Shown one piece after another: positions 8,551 to 45,400 of a DNA stretch of 64,000 nt. Position 1 is the stretch's first letter. Each line of letters begins with the position of its first letter. This DNA is from Hormiphora californensis (Eukaryota; Animalia; Ctenophora), in contig CM035350.1 in the NCBI GenBank assembly GCA_020137815.1, positions 7,254,001 through 7,318,000 of the forward strand, in the 5' to 3' direction. A program made the translations under genes and the position numbers. Under the pieces are notes generated by a model. The model had not been told where the DNA came from and made no database searches. It saw nothing but the letters and a program-made list of their open reading frames with translations.

Positions 8551-11500
8551 ATGGTGTCTCTAGAAGAACAGGTCAGTATCAACCAACTTCTGTTGCCTAG
8601 CTAGACCTTGTTTTGTGCAACACTTCTTGTACTATGTTTTAGTATACCCATTGATTACCAATACAAATATACCGCCAATTATCCTCTTAATCCCCCTCTT
8701 CTGTACCCATCTAATCCCCCTCTTCTGTACCCATCTAATCCCCCTCTTCTGTACCCATCTAATCCCCCTCTTCTGTACCCATCTAATCCCCCTCTTCTGT
8801 ACCCATCTAATCCCCCTCTTCTGTACCCATCTAATCCCCCTCTTCTGTACCCATCTAATCCCCCCTCTCCCCAGGATTGGTATTGGGGTAGTGTAGAGAG
8901 GGACGTGGTGTGTGGTGAGTTAGAAGACAGGCTAGATGGTACATTCATTGTAAGGGATGGCACTGCTCCACCTGATAAAACACTCCACGTGGTATACAAG
9001 GGTGTTACAAAGCACCTCAAGATACTGGTCAGGGGAGAGGGCCTAGTGGGACTCTCTCCGGACAAACTGATATTTGGGAGTGTAGTGGAACTCATCAACC
9101 ACTATAGGTACTTTAAATATCTGATATCGGGGGAGGGGAGCCATTAATCTATCGAACCCTCATAGAGCGTGCTCGCTCGTCATTTTATAAAATAGAATGA
9201 CGGTGTGTCGATCTGCGTCGATCTATTACCACAGCTACACACATCTACCCTCCACTGCCACACTTGCCCACAAAACTCTCTCATTGCAGTGAGACGACGC
9301 TGGCAACACACAACATTAATTTAAATGTACGACTGACTAACCCACTGAAAAAGAGGGAGAATGAGGACATTTTGGCACTGTTCGGTAACTCCGAGGATCC
9401 AACGTGGCACTCCTATGTGAATGTGTTTCTGGAATCGGAGATTAGGTACATATTCAATTTCTCTCCCAACCTACGTCCTACAACAACCTCCCCAACCTAA
9501 AACCTCTCCCAACACCCCCCAACCTAAAACCTCTCCCGACATCCCCCAACCTACAACCTCCCCCAACCTAAAACCTCTCCTAACCTCCCCCATGCTAAAA
9601 CCTCTCCCAACACACCCCCCCCCCCCCCCAACCTAAAATCTCTCCCAACCTCCCCCATCCTAAAACATCTCCCAACGTCCCCCAACCTAAAACCTCTCCC
9701 AACGTCCCCCAACCTAAAACCTCCCTTAACCTAACACCTCCCCCATCCCTGCAGGGCCAAGAAAATGGAGCGTGTACTGGAGAGTTTGGAAGCTAAAAAA
9801 GAAGAACTTCAACAGTTATCCTACGAGATAACAGCGGAGAACCTCCTTAAAGAGTTGAGAGAAGAGCAGTTGTTACACGAGAATATGGCACTCAACCACT
9901 TTAGCAAGGAATATCACGAGAAGGTGAGGAAGAACTTTGCTGACCAGAGGAAGAGGATACTGACCTCGGAGGAAAATCTTGAGGTAAGTTGGGGGGTCTA
10001 GAGGGGGTAAAGGGGGTTGTGGAGGTAAATTGGGCTGGGGTCTATTATAGGGGGGTTGTGGAGGTACATTTTGGGGTCTAGAGGGGTTGTTGATGTAAAT
10101 TTTGGGGGCTAGAGGGGAGGTCGTTGTGGCTTCTCATTGCTTATTAATAGGACAGTGGGAATAAGCAGCTTTCGTAGCAAGGGTGATTGGGGTGAAACGT
10201 TTGGTTGGGAATGTTGGAATTTCTCGGTGGAATTTGAGGCGAGTGAAGGGTGGGGTGAAGAAAATTCAAGAAGTTGTGGCTGAGTTCTCTAGAACCGGAA
10301 CTTGCTTTATCTGTTTTACTGATAAGGTGAAATGTCCAATAAACTTATAAGAGGCCTATTTTATTACACAAGTGTCTCCCCGTACTGAATACCACCCCGT
10401 ACTGAATACCACCCTGTACTGAATACCACCCCGTACTGAATACCACCCGTACTGAATACCACCCCGTAAAAAGGTGTTGTTGAGTAACCCCTAATACTCA
10501 ACCCCCCCTCCCCTCACTCAAGCCCTTACTCATCCCGTTACTTACAACCCCTAATACTCAACCCCCCCCCCCCTCACTCAAGCCCTTACTCATCCCATTA
10601 CTTACAACCTCTAATTATACTCAACCCCATCTCTGCCCTTACTCAACAATTAAGAATGCCCCATCGCTGCCCTCAATCAACAATTAAGAAGGCCCTATTT
10701 CTGCCCTAACTCAACAATTAAGAAGGCCCCATCTCTGCCCTTACTCAACAATTAAGGTCCTATTTCTACCCTTACTCAACAATTAAGAATGCCCCATCTC
10801 TGCCCTTACTCAACAATTAAGAAGGTCCCATCTCTGCAGGAGATCCAGGTTCGGATGCAGGGAGCAGGGGGTGAACTGAGGTCCCTGAGTATTGCCCGGG
10901 ATAAAATGAAGTCCGAGAAAGATGTCATATACAGGCACATGGATTGGTTGGAGAGGCTCCTTATGATGGAGGGGTGGGAACCAGCTAACATACAACGGTG
11001 CTTCAGGCCATTCTACCAGGACACAGGTTTATACATCCCCCCAACAAACTGAATATCTCTCATAGTTGGTACCCCCACTCAGTCCCCCCCCCCCCCCCAA
11101 CAAACTGAATATCTCTCATAGTTGGTACCCCCACTCAATCCCCCCCCCAACAAACTGAATATCTCTCATAGTTGGTACCCCCCACTCAATCCCCCCCCCC
11201 CCCCCACAAACTGCACTCAAACCCTCCCTACCCTATTATATTACTCTCTTCTCTCCCCCAACTCTCAATGATTGCCCGCAGGTTCCAGATTGTCTATACA
11301 GGGAATAAAGGAGATGTGGTTTGTGGGGTACATGGAAATGAAAGATGCACGGGAGATCCTAAAGGGACGTGATAATGGGACATTTCTAGTGCGACTTAAC
11401 GAGCGTAACGAATACATTCTCTCCCTTGTCAATCAGGTTAGAGCGGGAGCTTGATTGTGGATTCTGGGCGGGGTGGGGGTGACAATACGTAATAAGATTA

Positions 11501-11943: not shown

Positions 11944-14758
11944 CAGGGGCTGTCTCTGAGACCGCAAAATTCATTGTGTGGTCCGCACAAAAGACTAGCA
12001 AATTTGGGTGGGTTGTACAAATAAGCACACTGAGCGCGCAAATGATGGAGTTTCGCCAATTTTTTTGTACTGTGGGATTCACAAGGCTTTCACCTACTGC
12101 TTAGTGAAAACCCTGTGGAAAACGGTTGATCACAAGCTTTGCAGTGATCTAAACCGCTGGGAACTTCATTTCATAGTATATTTCATATTTGGTGGGGTAC
12201 GGCTCTTTATCCGCCTATCACTAAAAATTGAGATAGAAACTCGAAAAAAATCGTCTCATGAGTCATCCAAAATCGTCCATTCTACCGATTCCCGGGTCGT
12301 TTGGGGTTCCAGGCCCAACCGTCTGGGAGCCTATTGCCACATAAGTAAAAAAAGCCGGTTGATTTTTCGACCGGGTCATTTTGCGGTCTCACCAAGTATC
12401 ACGTGATCTGATCACATGATCTGAGGTGTTGAAAATTGGACTTTTACAAGTAAACATATGAATCTCTCTCCCTCCCACTATTCTACACTATAATCTCACT
12501 TGTGTGTGCACAGTTACACAGAAAAGGGGGGGGACCTTCCACCCTTCTGCTTCACAGGACTGTGGACCAAGGGCAGTGCTGATCAAACTGTAAACATTTG
12601 CAACTAATTGATATCAAAGCAAAAATCACTCTACCCGACTAATTTCAATAGGCTGAATCACATGAGCAACTTTTTAAAGATCTCAGAGGTCGATAAAGTG
12701 ATCTAATTGGTTATAATAGGGTCTAATTGATCGAAATTACAACTTCTCCCCTGAAAACGCTATGAAGTCGTATGAGGGCACTATACCCACTGACTTGGAT
12801 ACCCTGATTCACATGAGCATCTTTTCTAAGCTCTTAGAGATCGAGAAAGTGCTCTAATTGGGTCCAATTGACCAAAATGATTACCACTTTTCCCTGTAAT
12901 CTTTAAAGTTCATTTGGAGACACTTAGACTACCCACTAGTACTCGAAAATTAGTCTAAAATGCCGAAAAATGAGTAAGTTGGCATACTTTGATCGCAAAT
13001 ATCCACAGAACGGTTAGAGATAGACCATAAATTTCTTCACAACTCTTAGATTAACTTTTTCTTCTGAACAAAATGGCACCAGTGAAAAGTCTCTAAACCA
13101 CTCCAGAGTGGCTATAGCCGTATAGCCAAAAAACGGTTATGTGCATCTCCTGCTCATCTAATTATCCAATTATCTAATTAACCAGATGAGACTTAATTTC
13201 CGCACCTACCCCCACTAATGCGAGAACGCTACACATTTTAGTGTCCTTAGATTTGCCTCTACTCCTTTCCTAAGCCCTGTTTTGGTTTTCGCCAGAAGGC
13301 TAAAAACATGGGTAAAAGGGCGTGGCCGAAAAACCCAACTTTTTCATTGATAAAACCGCGGCCAATTTTTTTGGTGCTTCCAGGGACCTATTAGAGCCTA
13401 CTAGAAGTGGAATTAGCTTGATAACAATTATGTCCTTTTTCAGCATTTTTTGGCATCATATGCCCTGACTAAAATGAACTTATGAACTTATGAAAAGTGG
13501 TAATTATTTTGGTCAATTGGACCCAATTACGCTCAATTAGAGCACTTTATCCACCATTGAGAACTTGGAACAGTTGTTCATTCGAATCAGGGTATGCAAA
13601 ATAGTGGGTAAAGTGCCCTCACACCTATTTATAGCGTTTCTTGAGAGGAATCGTAATTTCGATCAATTAGATACAATTGTGCTCAATTAGAGCACTCTTT
13701 CCACATGACAAATAAGAGCTTATAAAAGATACTCATGCCCTGTTCATGTGAATCAGGGTATCAAAATCAGTGGGTAAGTGTCTCCAAATGAACTTATAGG
13801 GATTACAGGGAAAAGTGGTAATTATTTTGGTCAATTACCCTCAATTAGAGCACTTTCTCGATCTCTGAGAGCTTAGAAAAGATGCTCATGTGAATCAGGG
13901 TATCCAAGTCAGTGGGTATAGTGCCCTCATACGACTTCATAGCGTTTTCAGGGGAGAAGTTGTAATTTCGATCAATTAGACCCTATTATAACCAATTAGA
14001 TCACTTTATCGACCTCTGAGATCTTTAAAAAGTTGCTCATGTGATTCAGCCTATTGAAATTAGTCGGGTAGAGTGATTTTTGCTTTGATATCAATTAGTT
14101 GCAAATGTTTACAGTTTGATCAGCACTGCCCTTGGTCCACAGTCCTGTGAAGCAGAAGGGTGGAAGGTCCCCCCCCTTTTCTGTGTAACTGTGCACACAC
14201 AAGTGAGATTATAGTGTAGAATAGTGGGAGGGAGAGAGATTCATATGTTTACTTGGAAAAGTCCAATTTTCAACACCTCAGATCATGTGATCAGATCACG
14301 TGATACTTGGTGAGACCGCAAAATGACCCGGTCGAAAAATCAACCGGCTTTTTTTACTTATGTGGCAATAGGCTCCCAGACGGTTGGGCCTGGAACCCCA
14401 AACGACCCGGGAATCGGTAGAATGGACGATTTTGGATGACTCATGAGACGATTTTTTTCGAGTTTCTATCTCAATTTTTAGTGATAGGCGGATAAAGAGC
14501 CGTACCCCACCAAATATGAAATATACTATGAAATGAAGTTCCCAGCGGTTTAGATCACTGCAAAGCTTGTGATCAACCGTTTTCCACAGGGTTTTCACTA
14601 AGCAGTAGGTGAAAGCCTTGTGAATCCCACAGTACAAAAAAATTGGCGAAACTCCATCATTTGCGCGCTCAGTGTGCTTATTTGTACAACCCACCCAAAT
14701 TTGCTAGTCTTTTGTGCGGACCACACAATGAATTTTGCGGTCTCAGAGACAGCCCCTG
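11944..14758. mobile_element. 2.8-kb non-autonomous foldback DNA transposon; ~0.92-0.98 kb TIRs, 5-bp TSD ATATT
   Basis: CAGGGGCTGTCTCTGAGACC...GGTCTCAGAGACAGCCCCTG; ATATT at 11939-11943 and 14759-14763; no transposase ORF. Confidence 0.9.
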
Positions 14759-15237: not shown

Positions 15238-16685
15238 ATGGCAGAGCAGACTGTGGTGATAGACGCCCTGCCATACTCGGACCAGGGGTACGAGGATGAC
15301 AGAGTTAGGGAAGCAGCTGCAAAACTCATCGAGGAGGAGGTCAGTATATTCTAACATATTAGTTCCAATCAGGAACCGACCGAAACAAGTAAACAACCAA
15401 TCAGAACTCGTTATTTAGGTCACGTGACTGGTTATCATCCAATCAGGGACTAGTATTTCCTGATTCGGTCGGTTCCTGGTTCCAATATACTCCCTTATGT
15501 AATGTTCGGATGGAACAAGTCAATTACCCCCCCCCACCCCCCTGTGACAGGTAAAACGATACCACAGTAGTAAGAACTATCTGGAGCACATACCGGGGGA
15601 CCTGCACGAGAGATGGGAGACACCCGCTATGAAGGCTGCCTTTGAGAGGCTGGATAATCGACAACCCATGGAGATGCTTTCTATGAAGCGATGTGAACTA
15701 CCCCAACCCCCACCAGGTATTATTATAGGTCACTACCCCAACCCCCCCCCCCCCACCAGGTATTATTATAGGTCACTACCCCAACCCCCACCAGGTATTA
15801 TTATAGGTCACTACCCCAACCCCCACCAGGTATTATTATAGGTCACTACCCCAACCCCCACCAGGTATTATTATAGGTCACTACCCCAACCCCCACCAGG
15901 TAGTATTATATGTCACTACCCAACCCCCACCGGGTATTATTATAGGTCACTACCCCAACCCCCACCAGGTATTATTATAGGTCACTACCCCAACCCCCAC
16001 CAAGTATTATTATAGGTCACTACCCCCCCCCCCCCCACTCACACGCTCACACACTGGTCACTGCCCCCTTACCTGAGGTTTATCGGATGATGTAGTGCCC
16101 ATATTATTATAACATTCTCTAACTGGTCAGGCCAGAAACACGATGTGACGGCGTGGTTGTCAGCGGTGAGTAACTCCCGGTCCCAGCTAGAGCACCAGGC
16201 TATCCGGCTGTCCAATCTGGAACTTCTCAAAGAGCACGGGGTGAACTCTTGGACAGTCCACCTGCAGCAACTTCAGAAACTCTCTGAAGGGCAACAGAAA
16301 CATCTTCAGTCACTCCGGCAGGAAATACAGGTTAGAGGGCACGGAGAGAGAGAGTGATATGTATGGGGAATTGAAAGTGAGGGTTGGGAACTAAATGATT
16401 TCCGGGTGTTATTATTGAGAGTTTTAACCACTTCCCGCTCAGGACACCAATTGGGCCCGTAAAAAGGAACACACAGAAGCAGGCCAACTCCTCCAGACCC
16501 TTGAGGGACAATGGCTCGAGCTCGTCGGTAAAAACTACTCTGTAGAACGGGCGTGTGGGGAGTTAGAGATAGATGTTGAGAGACTAGAAAAGATGAAGGA
16601 AGAGAGACTTTGCGCCGTTCTGCCCGATAGTTCTACTACAGAGGGGCATCTCACAGCTGCAGCACCGGGGGTACCAGGAGAGTGA
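15238..16685 (+). CDS. BCAS2: Pre-mRNA splicing factor SPF27; exons 15238-15339, 15551-15716, 16131-16330, 16443-16685
   Basis: [18 protein letters not shown]|VKRY..KNYL; [22 protein letters not shown]; [23 protein letters not shown]. Confidence 0.93.
15370..15478. mobile_element. 109-bp hAT-type MITE in BCAS2 intron 1
   Basis: TIR CAGGAACCGACCGAA; perfect 8-bp TSD GTTCCAAT. Confidence 0.9.
15697..16023. repeat. 35-bp tandem repeat (~9 copies) containing exon end plus donor
   Basis: (actaccccaacccccaccag|gtattattataggtc)n. Confidence 0.95.
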
Positions 16686-17153
16686 GGTTATCTAACAGTC
16701 CTCTCTTATCAGATATATCAGGTTTCAGTCCAGGTGTCTCTTTCTCTCTCCCTGACTCTGTGTCGTGTACTGCACCGTTATACGTGTGTTATTATATGGG
16801 ATATATATTTGGTTGCCTTGTTGTCATCATCTAATCATTCTTTTGGACTGATCCCTCCCATTATACTACAATAATATACCCTTCTATTTTTGTTTTCTCT
16901 TCCGGAAAGTGATCTGTTTTATATTTATTATTATTGACACCCATTTGAATCTTATCCAACATACAACTGATTACTGAGTGGTATTTCCCAATGTGTGAGG
17001 TGTCTCCCCTCCTAATCAGCTGGTATCTTCTGTATTATAGGGCTCTATCACGGGTACTCGGAGAAAAAGCAGCGACAAAGACGGCGATACCTACCTCCTC
17101 CTCTCTGTAACTACCTCAGCTTCTAACAGCCGCCCCGAGGAGACAATTTCAAC

Positions 17154-19348
17154 ATGTGAGTCGGACATTTCCAATTAGTAACGAAATTACCCCTACCTTA
17201 CGGGCACGCTAAAACGTGCCTTACTAAAACTATACGATGTGATGCCTCTACGAGGGGTAATTTCCACGTCATGTACAGTGTACAATGTACAGTGTACATT
17301 GTACATTGTACACTAATCCAAAGGTTCCTTTGATCTAATCCCCCAAACATCTAGAACTGACTATCACGTGTTTCAGGCGATATTACACCCACCCCTGTAT
17401 GCTCAGCAAAGGCGTGCGAGCCCCGTGATCAATGCACCACCACGGGGTGTGATATAACAACTGACCAGCTACATGTTGCTACAACTGACCCATCTCAGCT
17501 CCATGTAGCTACAACTGACCCATCTTCAATCCAGCTCCATGTGGCTACAACTGACATCGATCCCTCACCCGCCCTGACCACACTTACTAAGGTAACGGGC
17601 TATTCATGTTACATTATAGTTTTACGTTGTAGTTGATGAACGTTCACTAGAGTATACATATTTTTTAATAAGAGGTATTGTTTGAAATCATGTGGTTCAA
17701 TGTGCAGGTGCTGTCAGGCGGTGAACTGCTCCGTTTCTCTCTCTCCGACTACCACTCTGGGGTACTGGGAAAGTGTCATGTGGTTCGCCATCGGGATGCC
17801 CTCTTTGTTCCCTTCCCCACCAACACCCTCTCTAGAGACTGGTTAGTGTTCCCTTCCCCACCAACACCCTCTCTAGAGACTGGTTAGTGTTCCCTTCCCC
17901 ACCAACACCCTCTCTAGAGACTGGTTAGTGTTCCCTTCCCCACCAACACCCTCTCTAGAGACTGGTTAGTGTTCCCTTCTCCGCCAACACCCTCTCTAGA
18001 GATTGGTTAGTGTTCCCTTCCCCACCAACACCCTCTCTAGAGACTGGTTAGTGTTCCCTTCTCCACCAACACCCTCTCTAGAGACTGGTTAGTGTTCCCT
18101 TCCCCACCAACACCCTCTCTAGAGATTGGTTAGTGTTCCCTTCCCCACCAACACCCTCTCTAGAGACTGGTTAGTGTCCCCTTCCCCGCCAACACCCTCT
18201 CTAGAGACTGGTTAGTGTTCCCTTCCCCACCAACACCCTCTCTAGAGACTGGTTAGTGTTCCCTTCCCCACCAACACCCTCTCTAGAGACTGGTTAGTGT
18301 TCCCTTCCCCACCAACACCCTCTCTAGAGACTGGTTAGTGTTCCCTTCCCCACCAACACCCTCTCTAGAGACTGGTTAGTGTTCCCTTCCCCACCAACAC
18401 CCTCTCTAGAGACTGGTTAGTGTTCCCTTCCCCACCAACACCCTCTCTAGAGACTGGTTAGTGTTCCCTTCCCCACCAACACCCTCTCTAGAGACTGGTT
18501 AGTGTTCCCTTCCCCACCAACACCCTCTCTAGAGACTGGTTAGTGTTCCCTTCCCCACCAACACCCTCTCTAGAGACTGGTTAGTGTTCCCTTCCCCACC
18601 AACACCCTCTCTAGAGACTGGTTAGTGTTCCCTTCCCCACCAACACCCTCTCTAGAGACTGGTTAGTGTTCCCTTCCCCACCAACACCCTCTCTAGAGAC
18701 TGGTTAGTGTTCCCTTCCCCACCAACACCCTCTCTAGAGACTGGTTAGTGTTCCCTTCCCCACCAACACCCTCTCTAGAGACTGGTTAGTGTTCCCTTCC
18801 CCACCAACACCCTCTCTAGAGACTGGTTAGTGTTCCCTTCCCCACCAACACCCTCTCTAGAGACTGGTTAGTGCTCCCTTCCCCACCAACACCCTTGGCC
18901 GCTTGAGATACATCCCTCGACTATCTCAGGCCCTTACGGGGCTGAGACAGTCTTGAAGAAGAAGAATGAGCTTATTGATATAATATTTCTATTTCCATCA
19001 CGTCCTACATATTTTGTGTTATGTTTTAAGATGTCACTAATCAACTCTCACCCATCCATCTCTCCCGTCTGACGTCTCTCTCTCACTCTCTCTCTCTCCC
19101 CCAGTTTTTTGGCCATGGTCCAGTATTGTGAACGAACGAAAACAGCCACGAAACTGGTAAGCTGTCTGGAGAGGTCGGATAAGGGCAAGGGACAGCTGAC
19201 GAAGACTCTTCTCTTCATGGGGTTCAAGCCCAGGACTCACACCAAGGACCCCGCCCTCATTCCACCATGCAATACAATGATTTTCATGGTGTACGAGATT
19301 AGTAAACCGGAAATAAACTCTAACAAGAACTTGATGGAAATTGATTGA
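17154..19348 (+). CDS. OAZ: Ornithine decarboxylase antizyme (+1 frameshift); coding exons 17154-17155, 17377-17591, 17708-17841, 19105-19348
   Basis: C-terminal ALFVPFP..SRDCFLAMVQYCE..LVSCLERS..LTKTLLFMGF..FMVYEI fits the antizyme domain. A 17-codon ORF1 ends CCG-TGA-T, and ORF2 lies in the +1 frame. Confidence 0.85.
17423..17450 (+). other. Putative +1 ribosomal frameshift site CCG-TGA-T with a downstream stem
   Basis: CCG 17423-25, TGA 17426-28, +1 frame GAT CAA TGC. Possible GCACC/GGTGT stem at 17434-17450. Confidence 0.75.
17807..18895. repeat. 41-bp tandem repeat (~26 copies) containing the OAZ exon end plus donor
   Basis: (gttcccttccccaccaacaccctctctagagactg|gttagt)n. Confidence 0.97.
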
Positions 19349-19853
19349 TCGTTGCACGTTTTAAATATTCACCTATTTTTTAATTGAATAGCACTTGCTG
19401 ATTCATTGATTAACTTTAATTTTAGTGTAAATAATAATCATGTTATGTATAACTCTTAAATTCATGTTTGAATACAATTAAAAGGCGTGTTTTGTTTCTG
19501 AATGCTGCAAGTGCAGCAGCAGTTTGTGAGAATATTACATTTTCACCCACTTTTGGGACGCGCAAGAATATATACAAATACGCGGCTTTTGAGTGGCGCG
19601 CACATAATGTTTTATTTGTGCGCGCGCCAAACACAAGCCTGAGCTGGGCCCGGTTGCGACCGTGATGTGACCCGGACCGGACCGGACGTCACGTCATCTT
19701 TAACGTTACGAGATCGTATTTCGTAACTGATCACGTCACATGGGTTGTGTAGTTTGTATCACGTGAAAATGACACGTTAATCAATTTTTGATAATTACTA
19801 TTTTTTTGGATAATTTGATAACATGATCTCCCCTCAGAAATCGGTCTTCGAAT

Positions 19854-21528
19854 ATGGCTTCGTCCTCATCTAGCTATAAGAACGGCGCAGGGGCAAGCAC
19901 GAGCAGCATGAAGGAGCCGGCCCGGAAGCTGCGACGAAAATCCTCCTCGGGTTCGGACGATTCCTACGGTTCACATGCGTATCGGTGCTGAATACCAAGC
20001 AGCGATACCTGCTCTCCAAACTGAGAAGAAACAGATGAGCAGAGGCCCTCCTCTGGTGATCTGGAAACCATATAAAATAGCCGAGGACAAACTGGTCAGG
20101 TTTATCGACTTCTCTCGAAACAAGTACGGATACCGTGAGGAACAATCACTTGGACTACTCTGGTGTCACAAGTACAACGTCGATGAAGCAAACAGAGACC
20201 TGGTGAATTTCGTGCCCTATCCCGATGACTGGACGACCCTCGAGAAACAAACTTTTGAGGTTGGCTTTCAGGAGCACGGGAAAGACTTCCACAAGATTAA
20301 AATGATGTTGCCGGATAAATCTGTGAACCATATTGTGAAGTACTACTACATTTGGAAGAAGAGCCGTGGAAAATACCAGAGTCTGAAGAACAAGGCGAGA
20401 TCTCGGAAGAACGTTGACAGTGACGATGATTCTAATGATGATTATACCTCACACAAAAACAAACGCATCCGTATGGGTTCATCATCCCTGATGACGTCTA
20501 ACTTTACTCAAAGTCAAATACCAATCATCCAGGCGCTGTACAGCAACAACGGGATGGGATCTTACGAGGCATGCACCAACTGTCACCGTGCTAAAGCGGT
20601 AACCCTGGTCACCCTGAAACGCGAAAACTTCCTCTGTGCTGTTTGCTCCGAGTACTATCAGAAGTACTCAGCGATGAGGCCTCTCTTTGAGAACGCCGTA
20701 GTTGGAACTGGGGTGACCAATGAGAAAGTCCTGAGCCCACCTGAGGGAGTTGATCTCACCATCGCCTCGTTGCGAGTTGTTGCGAGTCCGAAGGAAGCAC
20801 ACAATTTCTTTGCGAGTCTGACTAACCAAATCATGACGTATAAAACGAAGAGTCTCCAGTTGAAAGCCAAGTATGACAAGATGCAGAAGGAGTTTGCGGC
20901 GCTCAATATTGAGCAGTACCGTGAAAAGGCGCCTACTAGCTCCTCCAAGACATGGAGCAACTACGAGATGGAAATGATGAAGTTGAGTGTGAAGAACTAC
21001 GGAAAGGACTTCGATGCAGCTGCTATGATTGTACGTACTAAGACTGCAAACCAGTGCAGGAACATATTCTATTACAAGAAGAACAAGGATGATTTTGATA
21101 AATGTCTCGCTGATTATGATGCCAAGATCCTGGAGGAGGAAGAGAGGGCCAAGGAGAAGGCGAAGAAGTTGCTAGAGGAACAGGAAGACGAGATTCAGAT
21201 CATTGATGTCACCAAGAACCGCACCTCTACCCCGGACAACATTGTTTTCAATGTCCAGTTCAATGGTATGAAACAGCCCGTCCGCCTGCAGCGTGTACCC
21301 ATTCAGCAGTCCCCAGTTTCAAATGGCAGCAGTTCCGGGGATTCAACCCCAATGATCATCGATCTTACTGATGATGATGATGATTTCCGACCTGCCATTT
21401 CCCTCGGTGATGTACAGGTGTACAGTGCAGAGAAGAAAACCAACGGGCACCACGTCACCATGGTTACAGACGTTGTTCATGTTGTCGATGATGATATTCA
21501 GATTTTGGATTCTAATGGTGTCAAATGA
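19854..21528 (+). CDS. RCOR: CoREST/RCOR-like corepressor (ELM2-SANT, GATA-like Zn finger, SANT), intronless; main ORF 19975-21528; probable N-terminus from 19854 is 1 nt out of frame
   Basis: MRIGAEYQAAIP (ELM2); DDWTTLEKQTFEVGFQEHGKDFHKI (SANT1); CTNC..CAVC; WSNYEM..YGKDF..TKTANQC (SANT2). Confidence 0.85.
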
Positions 21529-31400: not shown

Positions 31401-34400
31401 ACCGACTAGAGATCTGCAATGGGTAGTCTATACGTTAACTAGACAATTTAGATTTTAGAACTTATATTTTACCTGGAGGAACAAGTTGAGTATGTAACTG
31501 GGACTATCCAGAAAGAAGACAACTAGCATAAGGAACATGCCAATTATAAAACACGCCTGACTGATCCTCCTTACTCCCCTTCTTAGACCTGGAGGAGAGA
31601 GAAAGGGTGTCGGGTTAGGAGAGAGGGGTGTTGGGTTAGGAGGAGAGAGAAAGGGTGTCGGGTTAGGAGATAGCGTGTTGAATTGGGTTTGGAGATAGGG
31701 TGTTGGGTTGGGTTCAGGGTAGGGAAGAAAACATGGATGACATTATACATATTTCATAAAGAGAGAGAGAGGGAGGTTCAGCATAGTTACATGATGAACT
31801 ACACACGTAACTATAATTGTATAGGGAAATACAAGTACATGTTGATGTAACTATACATGGAAATACATGGAAATACATGTAACTTTTATTAGACAAGAAA
31901 TATACACAGCTAGTAACGAGAAAATACCCCGTGATTTAAACACCTTGATCTCCGATAGATCCTATTAAAGGGGGCCGTGTTAGTGACACTTAAGTGACAA
32001 ATTTGTCACTTACTAAGTGTTGCTGAATATTACATGCATAAATGTGACAGGATATAATGTATGTACATATATATAATGTATATTGATATACTTGTGTGTA
32101 CTTTATTTAAACTGCTCAGATAGGAAGCACACAAGTTAGAATGCTTAGCTTTGTAGATGGCTCGCTGGACTAAATCAAATTGTTGAACTCACTAACTTAT
32201 TAATTAATTAATTAACACACCACGATTTTAAACTACCCTCAATAAAATATCACTCACCACTGACAACGGAGAGCGTTGCACAAAAAGTGATACTCCAAAT
32301 GATGAATATCTGAACATCTTTAGATTCCGGGATGAATGGAAACAGAAAATGCAGTCCTGCAGGAAAAGGAGATGTGGGTTGGTTTGTGTGTTTGTATGTC
32401 ATGTTTGTATGTCATGGTAGAAGGAGACGCGACTGACTGGAGGGCGCGGCTATCCGAGTCGCGGTAATTCTCGACCAGAAACACAGAGAGAGAGTGCCGC
32501 GCGCACACACAGATAGGCCAGAGAGCTGGCTGCTGACACTCACACTGTGATGTGCTTTATGTCACAGTGATGTGCTTTATGTCACACTCACCTGAGTTCA
32601 CCTGGATGACACCAATACCCAGGCTGGTACACACTCCGAATATTGTCGTGATAATGGAGAGAATGTCTATCAAATCCCCTACCCATCCGAATATCTAAAA
32701 ATAGATGATGTGATCAGAGACCGGGAAAGACCGTTATTCTAGAAGGGGGGGGGTCAGGGGTACCTTTTCTCCGATGAGAGGGTAGAAGCAGCTCTTCATA
32801 GTAAGAGGCAGGTCCCATCTGAAGGACGTGAAGGCTAGCACAATCCCCACAATACAGTAGACTACCCAGGCGTGAAGACCTGAGTGGGTGATTTATTGTC
32901 TTGTCTTTAATTGGGTGCCCTTTGAAAGGACTACAGAAAAATATCAATGTCTGAATTGACGCCCCGCTGCACGGAAATCTTTAGTAAAAGGCGAAAGATT
33001 TATTCGTGATGCAGTGAGACCAGACTACCAAGAGTTGCTCGTCCATGCTATACAAATTTCAGAACAGAAACAAACCTTGTGTTTTACTACATTCTCTTAA
33101 CTCACCCCAATGATAGAATGTGATATTCATAGCCATCTGGGCAAGTGAATTGTCGGGTAGATAGGGATCTTTAATGAATCGATTATCCGGTAAGAAGGTT
33201 GAGGTTGTGTAATGGCGGAGTGGCTCTGAAACACTGAAAATACACGTGGTCACATGACGGGGAGGGGAAGTAATATAGTAGTATAGGTAGGCTCCCCCTG
33301 GTGTTCTGCAGCAGTCTCTCTGCTACTTACTGCAGCAGTCTCTCTGCTACTGCTGCAGCAGCTATTGAGGTACATTCTTCCCCTGGATCAGGGCCCTATT
33401 GAGTGCTGGCAAGGACTTCTGAACAAGTGATGCCCTAGTAACCCCCTGGCCCCTAGTAACCCCCTAGTAACCTCCTAGTAACCCTCTAGTATCCTCCTAG
33501 TAACCCCCTAGTAACCTCTAGTAACCTCCTAGTAATCTCCTAGTAACCTCCGAGTAACCTCCTAGTAACCCTCTAGTAACCTCCTAGTAACCCCCTAATC
33601 CCTATTAACCTCCTAGTAACCTCCTAGTAACCCTCTAGTAACCTCCTAGTAACCCTCCTAGTAACCCCCTAGTAACCCCCTAGTAACCTCCTAGTAAACC
33701 TCTAGTAATCTCCTAATAACCCCCTAGTAACCCTCTAGTAACCTCCTCATAACCTCCTATTAACCCTCTAGTATCCCTGTAGTAACCTCCTAGTAACCCC
33801 CTAGTAACCTCCTAGTAATCCCCTCATAACCTCCTAGTAACCCACTAGTAACCTCCTAGTAATCCCCTCATAACCTCCTAGTAACCCACTAGTAACCTCC
33901 TAGTAACCCTCTAGTAACCCCCTAGTAACCCCCTAGTAACCTCCTAGTAACCCTCTAGTAACCTCCTAGTAACCCCCTAGTAACCTCGTTGAGGTTTACC
34001 TAAAAAAGAAGAGTCCTATTCCGATACCGCAGGCAAACAACATAGAAAACCACTCTGCATCTGAAAACTCTGGCTCGTCTTTATCCTTGCCTGTGTGAAA
34101 ATAGGCAGTCAGCATGACAAAACACAAATAATGACAATGAGTGATAACGAGACATACCGAGTTTGACATTAGCGTATTTGCTGAAGTAGAGCCAAGTGAC
34201 AAAGAGACATACATACTTACCGAGTTTGACATTGGCGTATTTGCTGAAGTAGAGCCAAATGACGAAGAAAGCTCTGAAGTCCTGGCTGCCAATAAACAGC
34301 CATGTAAAGTACTCTGACAAGCGCCGCTTGATATTCAAAAACTGGAACTGAGCATCTGGAATTAGATGTGAATTAGGTGTGAGCAGTAGTACATGTGTAA

Positions 34401-36500
34401 GGTAAGGGAAGTACCCCCAATCTCCCCAGCAGTACCCCAATCTCCCCAGCAGTACCCCAATCTCCCCAGCAGTACCCCACTCTCCCCAGCAGTACCCCAC
34501 TCTCCCCAGCAGTACCCCAATCTCCCCAGCAGTACCCCACTCTCCCCAGTAGTACCCCACTCTCCCCAGCAGTGCCCCCACTCTTCCCAGCAGTACCCCA
34601 ATCTCCCCAGCAGTACCCCACTCTCCCCAGTACCCCACTCTCCCCAGCAGTACCCCACTCTCCCCAGCAGTACCCCACTCTCCCCAGCAGTACCCCCACT
34701 CTCCCCAGCAGTACCACACTCTCCCCAGCAGTACTCCACTCTCCCCAGCAGTACCACACTCTCCCCAGCAGTACCCCACTCTTCCCAGTAGTACTTACTC
34801 TCCCCAGTATCCCCACTCTCCCCAATCAGTACTTACTCTCCTCAGTACCCCACTCTCCCCAGTAGTACCCCCACTCTCCCCAGCAGTACCCCCACTCTCC
34901 CCAGCAGTACCCCCACTCTCCCCAGCAGTACGCCACTCTCCCCAGCAGTACCCCACTCTCCCCAGCAGTACTCCACTCTCCCCAGCAGTGCCCCCACTCT
35001 TCCCATCAGTACCCCACTCTCCCCAGCAGTACCCCACTCTCCCCAGTAGTACCCCACTCTCCCCAGTAGTACCCCACTCTCCCCATTACCCCCACTTTCC
35101 CCAGCAGTACCCCACTCTCCCCAGCAGTACCCCACTCTCCCCAGCAGTACCCCACTCTCCCCAGCAGTACCCCACTCTCCCCAGCAGTACCCCACTCTCC
35201 CCAGCAATACCCCCACTCTCCCCAGCAGTACCCTACTCTCCCCAGCAGTACCCCACTCTCCCAGCAGTACCCCACTCTCCCCAGCAGTACCCCACTCTCC
35301 CAGCAGTACCCCACTCTCCCCAGCAGTACCCCACTCTCCCCAGCAGTACCCCAATCTCCCCAGCAGTACCCCACTCTCCCCAGCAGTACCCCACTCTCCC
35401 CAGCAGTACCCCACTCTCCCCAGCAGTACCCCCACTCTTCCCAGCAGTACCCCAATCTCCCCAGCAGTACCCCACTCTCCCCAGCAGTACCCAACTCTCC
35501 CCAGCAGTACCCCCACTCTTCCCAGTAGTACCCCACTCTCCCCAGCAGTACCCCACTCTCCCCAGCAGTACCCCACTCTCCCCAGCAGTACCCCCACTCT
35601 TCCCAGCAGTACCCCACTCTCCCCAGCAGTACCCCACTCTCCCCAGCAGTACCCCACTCTCCCCAGCAGTACCCCACTCTCCCCAGCAGTACCCCACTCT
35701 CCCCAGCAGTACCCCACTCTCCCCAGCAGTACCCCACTCTCCCAGCAGTACCCCACTCTCCCCAGCAGTACCACACTCTCCCCAGCAGTACCCCACTCTC
35801 CCCAGCAGTACCCCACTCTCCCCAGCAATACCCCCACTCTCCCCAGCAGTACCCCACTCTCCCCAGCAGTACCACACTCTCCCCAGCAGTACCACACTCT
35901 CCCCAGCAGTACCCCACTCTCCCCAGCAGTACCCCACTCTCCCCAGCAGTACCCCACTCTCCCCAGCAGTACCCCACTCTCCCCAGCAGTACTTACTCTC
36001 GGGGTCGCTGATGCACCAAACAATGAAGGTAACTATGACCGTCAGGGATGAGAATGTCGTGAAGGGATTTAGTCGAATCTTCAGGAACTCGTACTTGGGA
36101 TGATTGTACTTAAACCAAAAGTTAGTTATCTCCGTCCTCTCACGTCGGATTATCATACTTGTCTTGTCCGTCTAAGGAGAGCAAAATGAGGTTTAGTGAT
36201 AATCGAACCATTAAGATATTCATAGAACAGATTGAATGTTAGACATCTTTCTGACAAAGGAGATACATACGATAGCTTGGAATTACAATTTATCAGACTG
36301 ACCCATTCTTGTGGCATCTGTCTCGGAACCCGTTCAGGTTTGGGTGTCTTCATGTACTTCATATGGTCCTCCTGTTTAGATTCCTGTTTCTCACCCTGGT
36401 CTACATTGTCCCCGTTACTGAGGCTGGTGTATGTCTTGGCGGTAGCCCCGGCACTATCCGTGATTGTGATGATAGTGTGCTCCCCCGTCGTGCTTACCAT
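28474..36500 (-). CDS. BCCT-family (betaine/choline/carnitine) transporter, multi-exon
   Basis: [23 protein letters not shown]; [32 protein letters not shown]; [18 protein letters not shown]; [14 protein letters not shown] introns. Confidence 0.9.
33432..33986. repeat. Intronic 11-12 bp minisatellite
   Basis: (ctagtaacc[c/t]c)n starting beside the donor near 33999. Confidence 0.95.
34410..35996. repeat. Intronic ~20-bp minisatellite (~75-80 copies)
   Basis: (ctccccagcagtaccccact)n beginning exactly at the donor at 35996. Confidence 0.97.
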
Positions 36501-42400: not shown

Positions 42401-45400
42401 GTGCAGTGTACCTTAGCAAATTGAATGCCTCGTTTGGAGTTTTTACACCCGTCCAACATGGGTCCCCATACACATATCCCCATAATATTTGGTACCACTA
42501 TCAGTATCGCACCGGTAGCACTTGACTTGGCAGGTAAACCGATCTGGGGAGATATAAGGGGTTGTAGATGGTTAGAAAACATCATGAAACCGGGATGAAA
42601 CCAACCACCAGTTTTTAGTGGTTACCCAGTGGTTACCAAGGAGAAACTCAGTGGTTATCCAGTGGTTACCAAGGAGAAACTCAGTGGTTATCCAGTGGTT
42701 ACCAAGGAGAAACTCAGTGGTTATCCAGTGGTTACCAAGGAGAAACTCAGTGGTTATCCAGTGGTTACCAAGGAGAAACTCAGTGGTTATCCAGTGGTTA
42801 CCAAGGAGAAACTCAGTGGTTATCCAGTGGTTACCAAGGAGAAAATCATGGGTTACCCAGTGGTTACCAAGGAGAATATCAGTGGTTGCCCAGTGGTTAC
42901 CAAGGAGAAACTAAGTGGTTACCCAGTGGTTACCAAGGCGAAACTCAGTGGTTACCCAGTGGTTACCAAGGAGAAACTCAGTGGTTACCCAGTGGTTACC
43001 AAGGAGAAACTCATGGGTTACCCAGTGGTTACCAAGGAGAAACTCAGTGGTTACCCAGTGGTTACCAAGGAGAAACTCAGTGGTTACTCAGTGGTTACCA
43101 AGGAGAAACTCAGTGGTTACCAAGTGGTTACTAAGGAGAAACCCAGTGGTTACCCAGTGGTTACCAAGGAGAAACTCAGTGGTTACCCAGTGGTTACCAA
43201 GGAGAAACTCATGGGTTACCAAGGAGGTTACCAACCTCGAAAGCCCATCGTCCACTGTAATCGTAGAGTCCGCAGCAGTGCATGGTGGACAGGGTATCTC
43301 GGACACTACATGGTGAGAGACACACCTTCTGGCTGAGGGGACACACTCCTCCGTTAGCCAGGGTGGCCGCTATTACTGAACCCTGGTCCGTGGTTGTTGA
43401 TAAACTCTGCACCTGGGGAAAACAGAGACGTAACATTCAGAGAGTGCTGCACTCTGGAGTGAGCTAGAGAGATATAACGATCTCGGAATGGTGAGCTGGG
43501 ACTGGACATTGCCCATATATGGGCATATTCATATCAAAAAATGTTTTTTGGGGCGTTATTTCGAAAAAACCACACATATGAATCGCCTCATGAGAACCAG
43601 TACAACCATTATTTCCAGTCTGCACCTTCAGAACTCCATTTTATAATGAAAATTTTATTTTATTTTCATCTTTTTTTCTTGCACATTTTCCTACTTTGCA
43701 GTATTAGTTGAGACGAATTTTAACTTTTTGAGATTTTATTTGTCGGAAACCAAATTCCGGTTGTAACCGACTACTTTTGACCTGCTGAACACGATCCCGT
43801 TCATGAAAAAGCTCTCAAAATTGAAGAAAATGGCCAAAATGAACATTTTTAGTCAAAAATGAACATTTTTGGTCCAAAATGAACATTTTCAGGTCAAAAA
43901 TGACCTTTGGCTAACTTTCATGATACACATCCATTCTGATCGGTATCAAACCGCTGAACACGACCCTGACCATAAAAAGTTGATATCAAGAACATGCCAA
44001 AAACTGGTGTAAAACACACATATTTTCCTTTTTTCGGTAAAAAAGTAAACTTTTTTAATCGCCTGGCCCACGTAATTGACATACACTATCCCAATTCCGT
44101 TTTCAGGATGTAGTAGACAATTGTCCATAGTTTCATATCTACCCTTAACCTTTTGGCCAAGTCGACAAAATTTTCACTTAGCACACCCTACTGGACATAC
44201 ATGATCTGTAGAACTACCTGAAAGTAGAAGTCCAAGACTTCATCCATGGGTGGTGAGATTTCAGGGAAGACACCCTTTTTACGGAGAATATGTCCAATTG
44301 CCTTCTCCTTAAAACTGTGATCTTTCTTCTTTAGAAACCAGGAGAGATCAAAGTCAAGCTGGCCACCACCGAGCATCCCATTGAACTGCTGGACAAGGGT
44401 ATCAAACCTAGGGCGAGGGATGAAGAAATAATGAGGGAGTGCTACCATGGCGCATCTCAATTCCAGTGTTACCATGGTAACCATGGTGCATCCCAAGTCC
44501 AGTGTTACCATGGTAACCATGGTGCATCTCAAGTGTTACCATGGTAACCATGGCGCATCTTCAATCAGGATACCTACTATGTAATTGATGCGGCATCTAC
44601 TACCTGTCCGGTATTGCTAGGTCAGGTCGGAAGAGTGATGCAATAACAATGCATCCCATTGAAACTAGCGGGTTATACGGTTTTCCCTCGTTGTTTAGCT
44701 TGATTTCCTCGGAGTGAATGCCGCTAGGTTCCCTCCCCACATACTGATACACAGTATCACGACCCACCAGGTCTTCTGTTAGCGCAAAGAGGATCGGGTA
44801 GACGCAGCTGCCCAGAGCGAACTTTTCCTTGGTGTGACCCAGAGAGATCCTGTAGGTAAAGGGAGTGTAATATGACATTGATCCTGCAGAGGGCTGGTTG
44901 GAAGAGCTGTCAGGCTACTACGGTTCTATGAGAATAGGGTCAGCCGTCAGGCCAATACTCTGACAGTGGAAGAGGGGGGATTATTGGGGAACCATGCAGT
45001 TATATCTACCTCTGTCCATCCACACTACAAATACTAACTCCCCACGCATCCATTCTTTCTGAATCCACCATTGGTTTTGTACTTGTCTGTGCAGGGAGAT
45101 GCAGGGAAGTTAGAAAATAAAACAGAGAAAGAGCTGTCAGATTCTCAGCCATCATGCAGCTCCCCTGCACTAACCGTGGCAGAAAACATTGGCACAGTGC
45201 CAATGGGATCGATGTAAACACACTTTTCAAAACACTCCTGAGGGGGGAATAATATCACGGATTCGGGATAGACCTACTGAATAAAGCTTTTCACATGACC
45301 CAATACTGCACCCAGTACAATTATATGACGGGTCTTAGAAAACGATTGGTCCAATTTAATAGCTTCAAGAGAAGTAAAACAGAGCCCTAATCCCTATTAT

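Follow-up and report, generated by a model that had tools for sequence, protein, structure and literature searches.

How a complete antizyme could be made from a gene whose main reading frame has no AUG ahead of the antizyme domain is the question raised by this locus. Antizyme is a brake on polyamine synthesis. The gene lies on the + strand of the window (the whole 64-kb stretch of DNA that was analysed, to which all positions refer). The original prediction held that an intron splits its start codon and that its two reading frames are joined by a +1 frameshift at an atypical CCG-UGA site.

Exon structure and antizyme identity

The gene has four exons on the + strand (17041-17155, 17377-17591, 17708-17841, and 19105-19348 and beyond) and every intron is of the GT..AG type. 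The RNA data are contigs from public marine poly(A) or cDNA metatranscriptomes, of which seven of the eight runs listed were examined. Their similarity to the window is 95-99%, so they are not independent orthologues; their depth across exons 1 and 2 is 4-9. Intron 1 (17156-17376, 221 nt) divides the start codon of the first reading frame, ORF1. It is skipped exactly, joining 17155 to 17377, in contigs of runs X1, X5 and X7 (three of the seven runs, from the two studies P1 and P4), which bears out the prediction that this junction assembles an AUG from AT and G. Intron 2 (17592-17707, 116 nt) is joined in X1, X2 and X4. For intron 3 (17842-19104, 1263 nt, the greater part of it a tandem repeat of 41 bp), loose contig ends beyond 17841 agree with the beginning of exon 4 in X2, X3 and X4, and a related locus, L001, has this intron at the identical position and phase.

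Exon 1 consists of a 113-nt AUG-free leader followed by the AU of the ORF1 start codon. Exon 2 holds the body of ORF1, the inferred shift site, the first 55 codons of the second frame (ORF2) and a repeat with a 30-nt period (17465-17555). Exon 3, placed by RNA contigs and the homologue profile, encodes the N-terminal strands of the antizyme fold, and the coding part of exon 4 encodes the ODC_AZ core and the ORF2 stop. There is an ATTAAA on the + strand at 19477, downstream of this coding part.

The introns carry repeats of their own. Intron 3 starts with a tandem repeat of 41 bp x 26.6 (17806-18895) whose unit takes in the end of the exon as well as the splice donor. There are 26 copies of the donor site within it; the first one is used in the RNA and the next three would break the frame. 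Intron 2 of the upstream gene, BCAS2, likewise starts with a tandem repeat (35 bp x 9.5, 15697-16037) whose unit spans the exon end and the donor. A palindromic 7-nt repeat in intron 1 (17271-17312) is matched by many unrelated RNA contigs and is probably a dispersed repeat. The Rfam scan gave no antizyme element and four weak microRNA matches on this palindrome, all far below the cut-off.

Exon 4 alone scores 29.0 bits against the Pfam ODC_AZ family (PF02100; cut-off 24.2) in the kind of domain search proposed as a check on the original prediction. Five of the six homologues scanned pass the same cut-off. A search of 1.84 billion representative proteins gave seven homologues with 42-72% identity; the profile searches gave 11 proteins each, and a third protein search added P0019 only. 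A search with exon 4 against longer proteins confirmed none of 15 candidates. We infer that the homologous proteins come from ctenophores. A profile built from the seven homologues and exon 4 matches rat and human antizyme 1 chains (E 3e-9 to 4e-8). The fold was assessed on a predicted model of the homologue P0009 (34% identical to ORF2; pLDDT 76.5) rather than on the window protein: antizyme 1 chains fill the first five Foldseek rows, the best being 4zgy_B (E 1e-6, TM 0.73 of the target). The conserved Lys/Arg-to-Tyr core is present, with Arg and Tyr in the aligned columns, which we take to be those of human K153 and Y216. Arg in place of the conserved Lys is known from a minority of antizymes (PMC1874602). 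By its domain, its reading frames, its exon structure and its spliced leader (described below), the gene is a genuine antizyme of known mechanism, and its product is predicted to bind and inhibit ornithine decarboxylase.

Other features of the window lie at some distance from the antizyme. The downstream gene (19854-21528) encodes an ELM2 and two Myb/SANT domains in one 538-codon frame and is presumably CoREST/RCOR-like. A pair of identical stop-free frames of 135 codons, separated by 2.3 kb (11999-12406 and 14296-14703), points to a recent duplication or a repeat element. Long simple tandem arrays at 34081-36171, 42599-43336 and 8605-9147 have open frames on both strands.

Reading frames and the 5' end of the mRNA

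Once intron 1 is removed, the first AUG (17154-17155 plus 17377, with A at -3) opens ORF1, which runs for 17 codons to a UGA (17154-17428); a second in-frame AUG at 17399 has a poorer context. In unspliced DNA positions 17154-17159 read AUG-UGA, and splicing converts this start-stop to ORF1. Retention of intron 1 would yield a start-stop uORF. One X2 contig retains eight intron 1 bases and has an odd joint, 17163 to 17375 (30-nt side, with the letters between unread).

ORF1 ends in CCG-UGA-U, as originally read: the P-site codon CCG at 17423-17425 follows GCC, the UGA is at 17426-17428 and the next base is U. The +1 frame, ORF2 (17427-19348, stop at 19346-19348), is open for 180 codons over exons 2 to 4 and into the antizyme domain. 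Its first AUG is residue 104 (19115), inside the ODC_AZ domain and behind eight AUGs in other frames. The claims that this frame crosses three exons and has no in-frame AUG before the domain were both correct. This is the layout of a frameshift-type mRNA, in which an AUG-started ORF1 overlaps a +1 ORF2 without a usable AUG, and the ORF1 stop is UGA followed by U in the DNA or by C in one X7 contig (depth 3.9).

The gene could instead make only a short product of 77 residues from Met104, or it could be decaying. The closest homologue found, P0001 (72% identical), is indeed called from the same Met, and the ORF1/ORF2 layout explains such a truncated protein from gene callers. However, conservation in frame extends over exon 3 and the last part of exon 2, variants preserve the frame, the eight upstream AUGs would block scanning, and the short protein lacks several strands of the fold. 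A 12-homologue profile made without the window sequence aligns to ORF2 residues 18-168 (147.8 bits). BLASTP alignments of eight long homologues begin at ORF2 residue 48 or earlier, which places at least 55 residues of homology before the first in-frame Met. We regard a short product or a decaying gene as the most improbable of the readings.

The variants among the RNA contigs hint at a coding pattern, with the proviso that several of them come from one contig of depth 4-6. The exon 2 indels, -24 in X1 and +3 in X7, both preserve the frame; they sit in the repeat of 30-nt period, whose unit is a multiple of three. The exon 2 differences listed for ORF2 comprise one synonymous change (the base after the UGA, U to C, still a pyrimidine) and three missense changes, one of which abolishes the AUG directly after the ORF1 stop. 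All three of the listed exon 3 differences are synonymous. No difference is listed within CCG-UGA, which two contigs span, or within the exon 2 part of ORF1. Polymorphism in the leader (5/117) and in ORF1 (0/52) does not differ significantly (p 0.33). Taken together, the in-frame indels of exon 2 and the homology from ORF2 residue 18-48 onwards indicate that the frame is probably coding upstream of AUG 19115.

Three of the four long JGI homologues are called from a non-Met residue (Leu or Val) and P0006 from Met. The Logan copies of two of the long JGI proteins have Met at the same first residue, i.e. these are non-AUG calls. Such calls are expected if ORF2 has no leading AUG.

Two contigs, both from one study, extend upstream of exon 1 with loose 5' ends before 17039 that are non-genomic (26 nt in X1 and 9 nt in X5). 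When compared by eye with the published sequence (PMC8527503), the last 24 nt, including the AG, are identical to the spliced leader of Hormiphora californensis at its 3' end, and the four outermost letters resemble adapter. The source animal is therefore very likely a ctenophore, and position 17041 is a trans-splice acceptor, with its AG at 17039-17040 on the + strand. The leader tail has no AUG in its sequenced part and, read in the ORF2 frame, has a TAA three codons ahead of 17041, so in the RNA seen no upstream exon gives ORF2 an AUG. This contradicts one of the two cases that the original prediction named as its own refutation, an upstream exon with an in-frame ATG. A poly(A) loose end at 16959 in X2 shows that BCAS2, the upstream gene, ends some 80 nt ahead of the acceptor, which leaves little space for another exon. 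The spacing between the BCAS2 poly(A) site and the antizyme acceptor (16959-17041) is operon-like.

An in-frame AUG could still be supplied by an unseen splice form, through a cryptic donor within intron 1, removal of the ORF1 stop in a cryptic intron, or cis-splicing from BCAS2 to 17041. On paper, 69 of the 23 x 23 GT/AG combinations make such an AUG, and the contig depth is low, with rare variants dropped by contigs. The donor of BCAS2 exon 3 (16330) is of phase 0, and the acceptor at 17041 lies in frame with ORF2; cis-splicing between them would make an in-frame BCAS2-antizyme fusion without a frameshift. However, none of the 69 combinations uses the observed donor at 17156. The great majority (66/69) use donors within intron 1 and retain the AUG-UGA upstream, as the odd X2 joint would too, and the other three rely on a weak donor at 17414. 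The seven runs contain no such joint (the BCAS2 exon 3 donor lies outside the stretches compared) and both loose 5' ends are leader. A hidden splice form is thus very improbable.

As the original prediction observed, no stop interrupts the ORF2 frame back to 17041, but these 55 codons are equalled in 12.8% of 20,000 base shuffles, so the openness is within chance. On the + strand at 17050-17052 this frame contains an ACG, flanked by A at -3 and by G at +4, which is a candidate non-AUG start. Starting there would make a frameshift unnecessary: ORF1 would be an inhibitory overlapping uORF, and polyamine-dependent queuing could favour the ACG. There is a precedent for such queuing in the AZIN1 mRNA (PMC7530721), and antizymes without a simple +1 shift are reported from Capsaspora and Tetrahymena (PMC1874602). 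The exon 1 differences listed, when read in the ORF2 frame, make no stop (0/4); two are synonymous but two alter a residue. No homologue aligns to the exon 1 reading, and ORF1 ends in UGA plus a pyrimidine in the right frame relation, like the ORF1 of frameshifting antizymes. A non-AUG start therefore seems quite improbable.

The CCG-UGA site and the direction of the proposed shift

The reading that we consider probable is a leader-capped antizyme gene in which ribosomes slip forward by one base at CCG-UGA (17423-17429) to make a 197-residue product. Ribosomes would start at the spliced AUG. Termination at UGA-U/C would be slow while peptidyl-tRNA-Pro is on CCG in the P site, Asp-tRNA would be accepted at the +1 codon GAU, and a fraction of the ribosomes would continue in the +1 frame. 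By analogy with all studied antizymes, the shift would probably be more frequent at high spermidine or polyamine. The P-site codon after a shift would be CGU for +1 and CCC for -1 and -2. A +1 shift would be of the type without re-pairing, because a CCG tRNA pairs with one base of CGU. This is the type argued for the GCG and CCG sites of yeasts, and not the UCC-to-CCU slip of most animals.

A backward slip of two bases would also reach a long frame. The peptidyl-tRNA-Pro would move from CCG to CCC within a run of four C's, CGU would be read as Arg and the product would have 198 residues. The -2 frame is open (181 codons), and CCC retains two of three bases for any tRNA-Pro whereas CGU retains one. 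Mammalian antizyme cassettes shift mostly by -2 in S. cerevisiae (PMC1874602). In mammalian reporters a C-rich sequence before the stop aids translation past it in all frames, but a C triplet adjoining the stop is the least effective position (PMC13341110). Moreover, the antizyme literature examined, in its available text, reports no natural antizyme that uses -2. We favour +1 because the GCG site of S. cerevisiae, which offers the same choice, shifts +1 despite its potential for -2 re-pairing (PMC5009743). The -2 slip is unlikely, though the likeliest of the alternatives.

Shifts of -1 and +2 were rejected, since they would add only 10 and 9 residues. A-to-I editing and readthrough of the UGA were also rejected: the contigs are unchanged and frame 0 stops seven codons on.

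The site does not have the canonical metazoan cassette of UCC, a Trp codon at -2, a UCCCU element and a 3' pseudoknot (as defined in PMC1874602 and PMC5009743). Neither the UCCCU element nor the Trp codon two before the site is present in the window gene. A pseudoknot 3' of the stop is at chance level, as 141 of 300 shuffles were as good. The z score for folding 3' of the stop varies with length from +0.2 to -2.6, and the exon 2 repeat accounts for the stronger values. What is present is the feature of budding-yeast sites, a CCG in the P site that does not re-pair at +1, where the codon is CGU. Counted over eight further coding stretches of the window, CCG makes up 15 of 82 Pro codons (18%), so this codon is under no strong avoidance. 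There are no tRNA genes within the 64-kb window, and no ctenophore tRNA inventory is among the literature matches listed.

Orthologous shift sites were sought in other DNA. Scanning metagenomes with exon 4 gave nothing in 268 stretches. With the homologue alignment it gave two of 27, of which L001 is a real homologue that begins inside exon 3 and L002 is a bacterial false match. None of 89 viral contigs contained orthologous DNA, and the one match in 14 prokaryote genomes was the same false match, in Polaribacter. Back-translation of homologue N-termini for an ORF1-like tail gave p values of 0.05-0.24 for P0010 and 0.36-0.82 for P0008, below the scores of decoy sites inside the proteins. Residues 8-12 of P0010 and 11-15 of P0008 have the Glu-x-x-Asp spacing of the window's +1 reading; this would put a possible site at residue 12 of P0010 (P-site ACC/GCC) and at residue 15 of P0008 (CCU/UCU), but it is not significant.

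Comparison with known antizymes

The gene itself is expected, because antizyme frameshifting is textbook knowledge. Every animal or fungal antizyme covered by a survey from 2007 needs +1 frameshifting, 97% of them at UGA (PMC1874602). In its available text CCG is given for Ascomycota only, and Ctenophora is not among the nine animal phyla covered; a CCG P-site is therefore atypical for an animal, as originally claimed. In the literature searched, which includes few subscription papers, there is no ctenophore antizyme and no animal CCG site, although curated antizyme lists may include ctenophores. The string 'ctenophor' is absent from the examined text of one antizyme paper (PMC5009743). Relative to the survey, probable antizyme recoding at a CCG P-site without known stimulators, in what is very likely a ctenophore, is new, since the phylum was not surveyed; the mechanism is already known. 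No spermine synthase was found in ctenophores, according to the available part of another study (PMC12803844).

Tentatively, and with more doubt than belief, we suggest that the lineage sister to all other animals may have dropped the UCC-UGA cassette and its stimulators, with polyamine feedback now relying on a minimal Pro-stop site, CCG-UGA, that works by a yeast-like +1 shift without re-pairing or by what would be the first natural antizyme shift of -2. The homologue N-termini may hint at unlisted P-site codons (RCC, YCU) in other ctenophores. A CCG case in an animal would mean that animal ribosomes support +1 decoding without tRNA re-pairing, a question recently reopened (PMC12661321), or a natural -2 route. 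Including Ctenophora among the groups with antizyme recoding is also relevant to whether animals had UCC-UGA ancestrally.

The human and rat OAZ1 genes (UCC-UGA; PDB 4zgy, 5bwa and 1zo0) share with the window gene the ODC_AZ domain and fold, a +1 ORF2 overlap, UGA-U and a similar ORF2 size. In contrast with them, the window gene has CCG instead of UCC, and lacks Trp at -2, UCCCU and a detectable class I or II pseudoknot. Its ORF1 has 17 codons compared with about 60, Arg is at the conserved Lys position and the mRNA is trans-spliced.

The antizyme of Hydra, also a non-bilaterian, has the shortest ORF1 published, which is likewise 17 codons (PMC1874602). The original prediction of a very short ORF1 is thus right as to length, but this shortness is not exceptional. 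Cnidaria are given with UCC only in the available text of the same survey.

The GCG heptamers of Ty3 and OAZ1 in S. cerevisiae resemble the window site in having a P-site codon without +1 re-pairing (PMC12661321). The no-slippage mechanism is demonstrated there for GCG in yeast, and CCG does not occur in the main text of that paper (0 occurrences).

Finally, the antizyme of Kluyveromyces waltii (CCG_UGA_C) and the related GCG/CCG-UGA sites of budding yeasts are like the window site in their CCG P-site and UGA plus pyrimidine (PMC5009743, PMC1874602). Poor +1 re-pairing and the potential for -2 re-pairing are common to both. The CCG P-site of yeasts has been explained by gaps in the tRNA set that are specific to yeasts, and K. 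waltii is a fungus from which the cognate tRNA-Pro (anticodon 3'GGC5') is absent (PMC5009743), whereas the window comes from an animal in which CCG accounts for 18% of the Pro codons counted.
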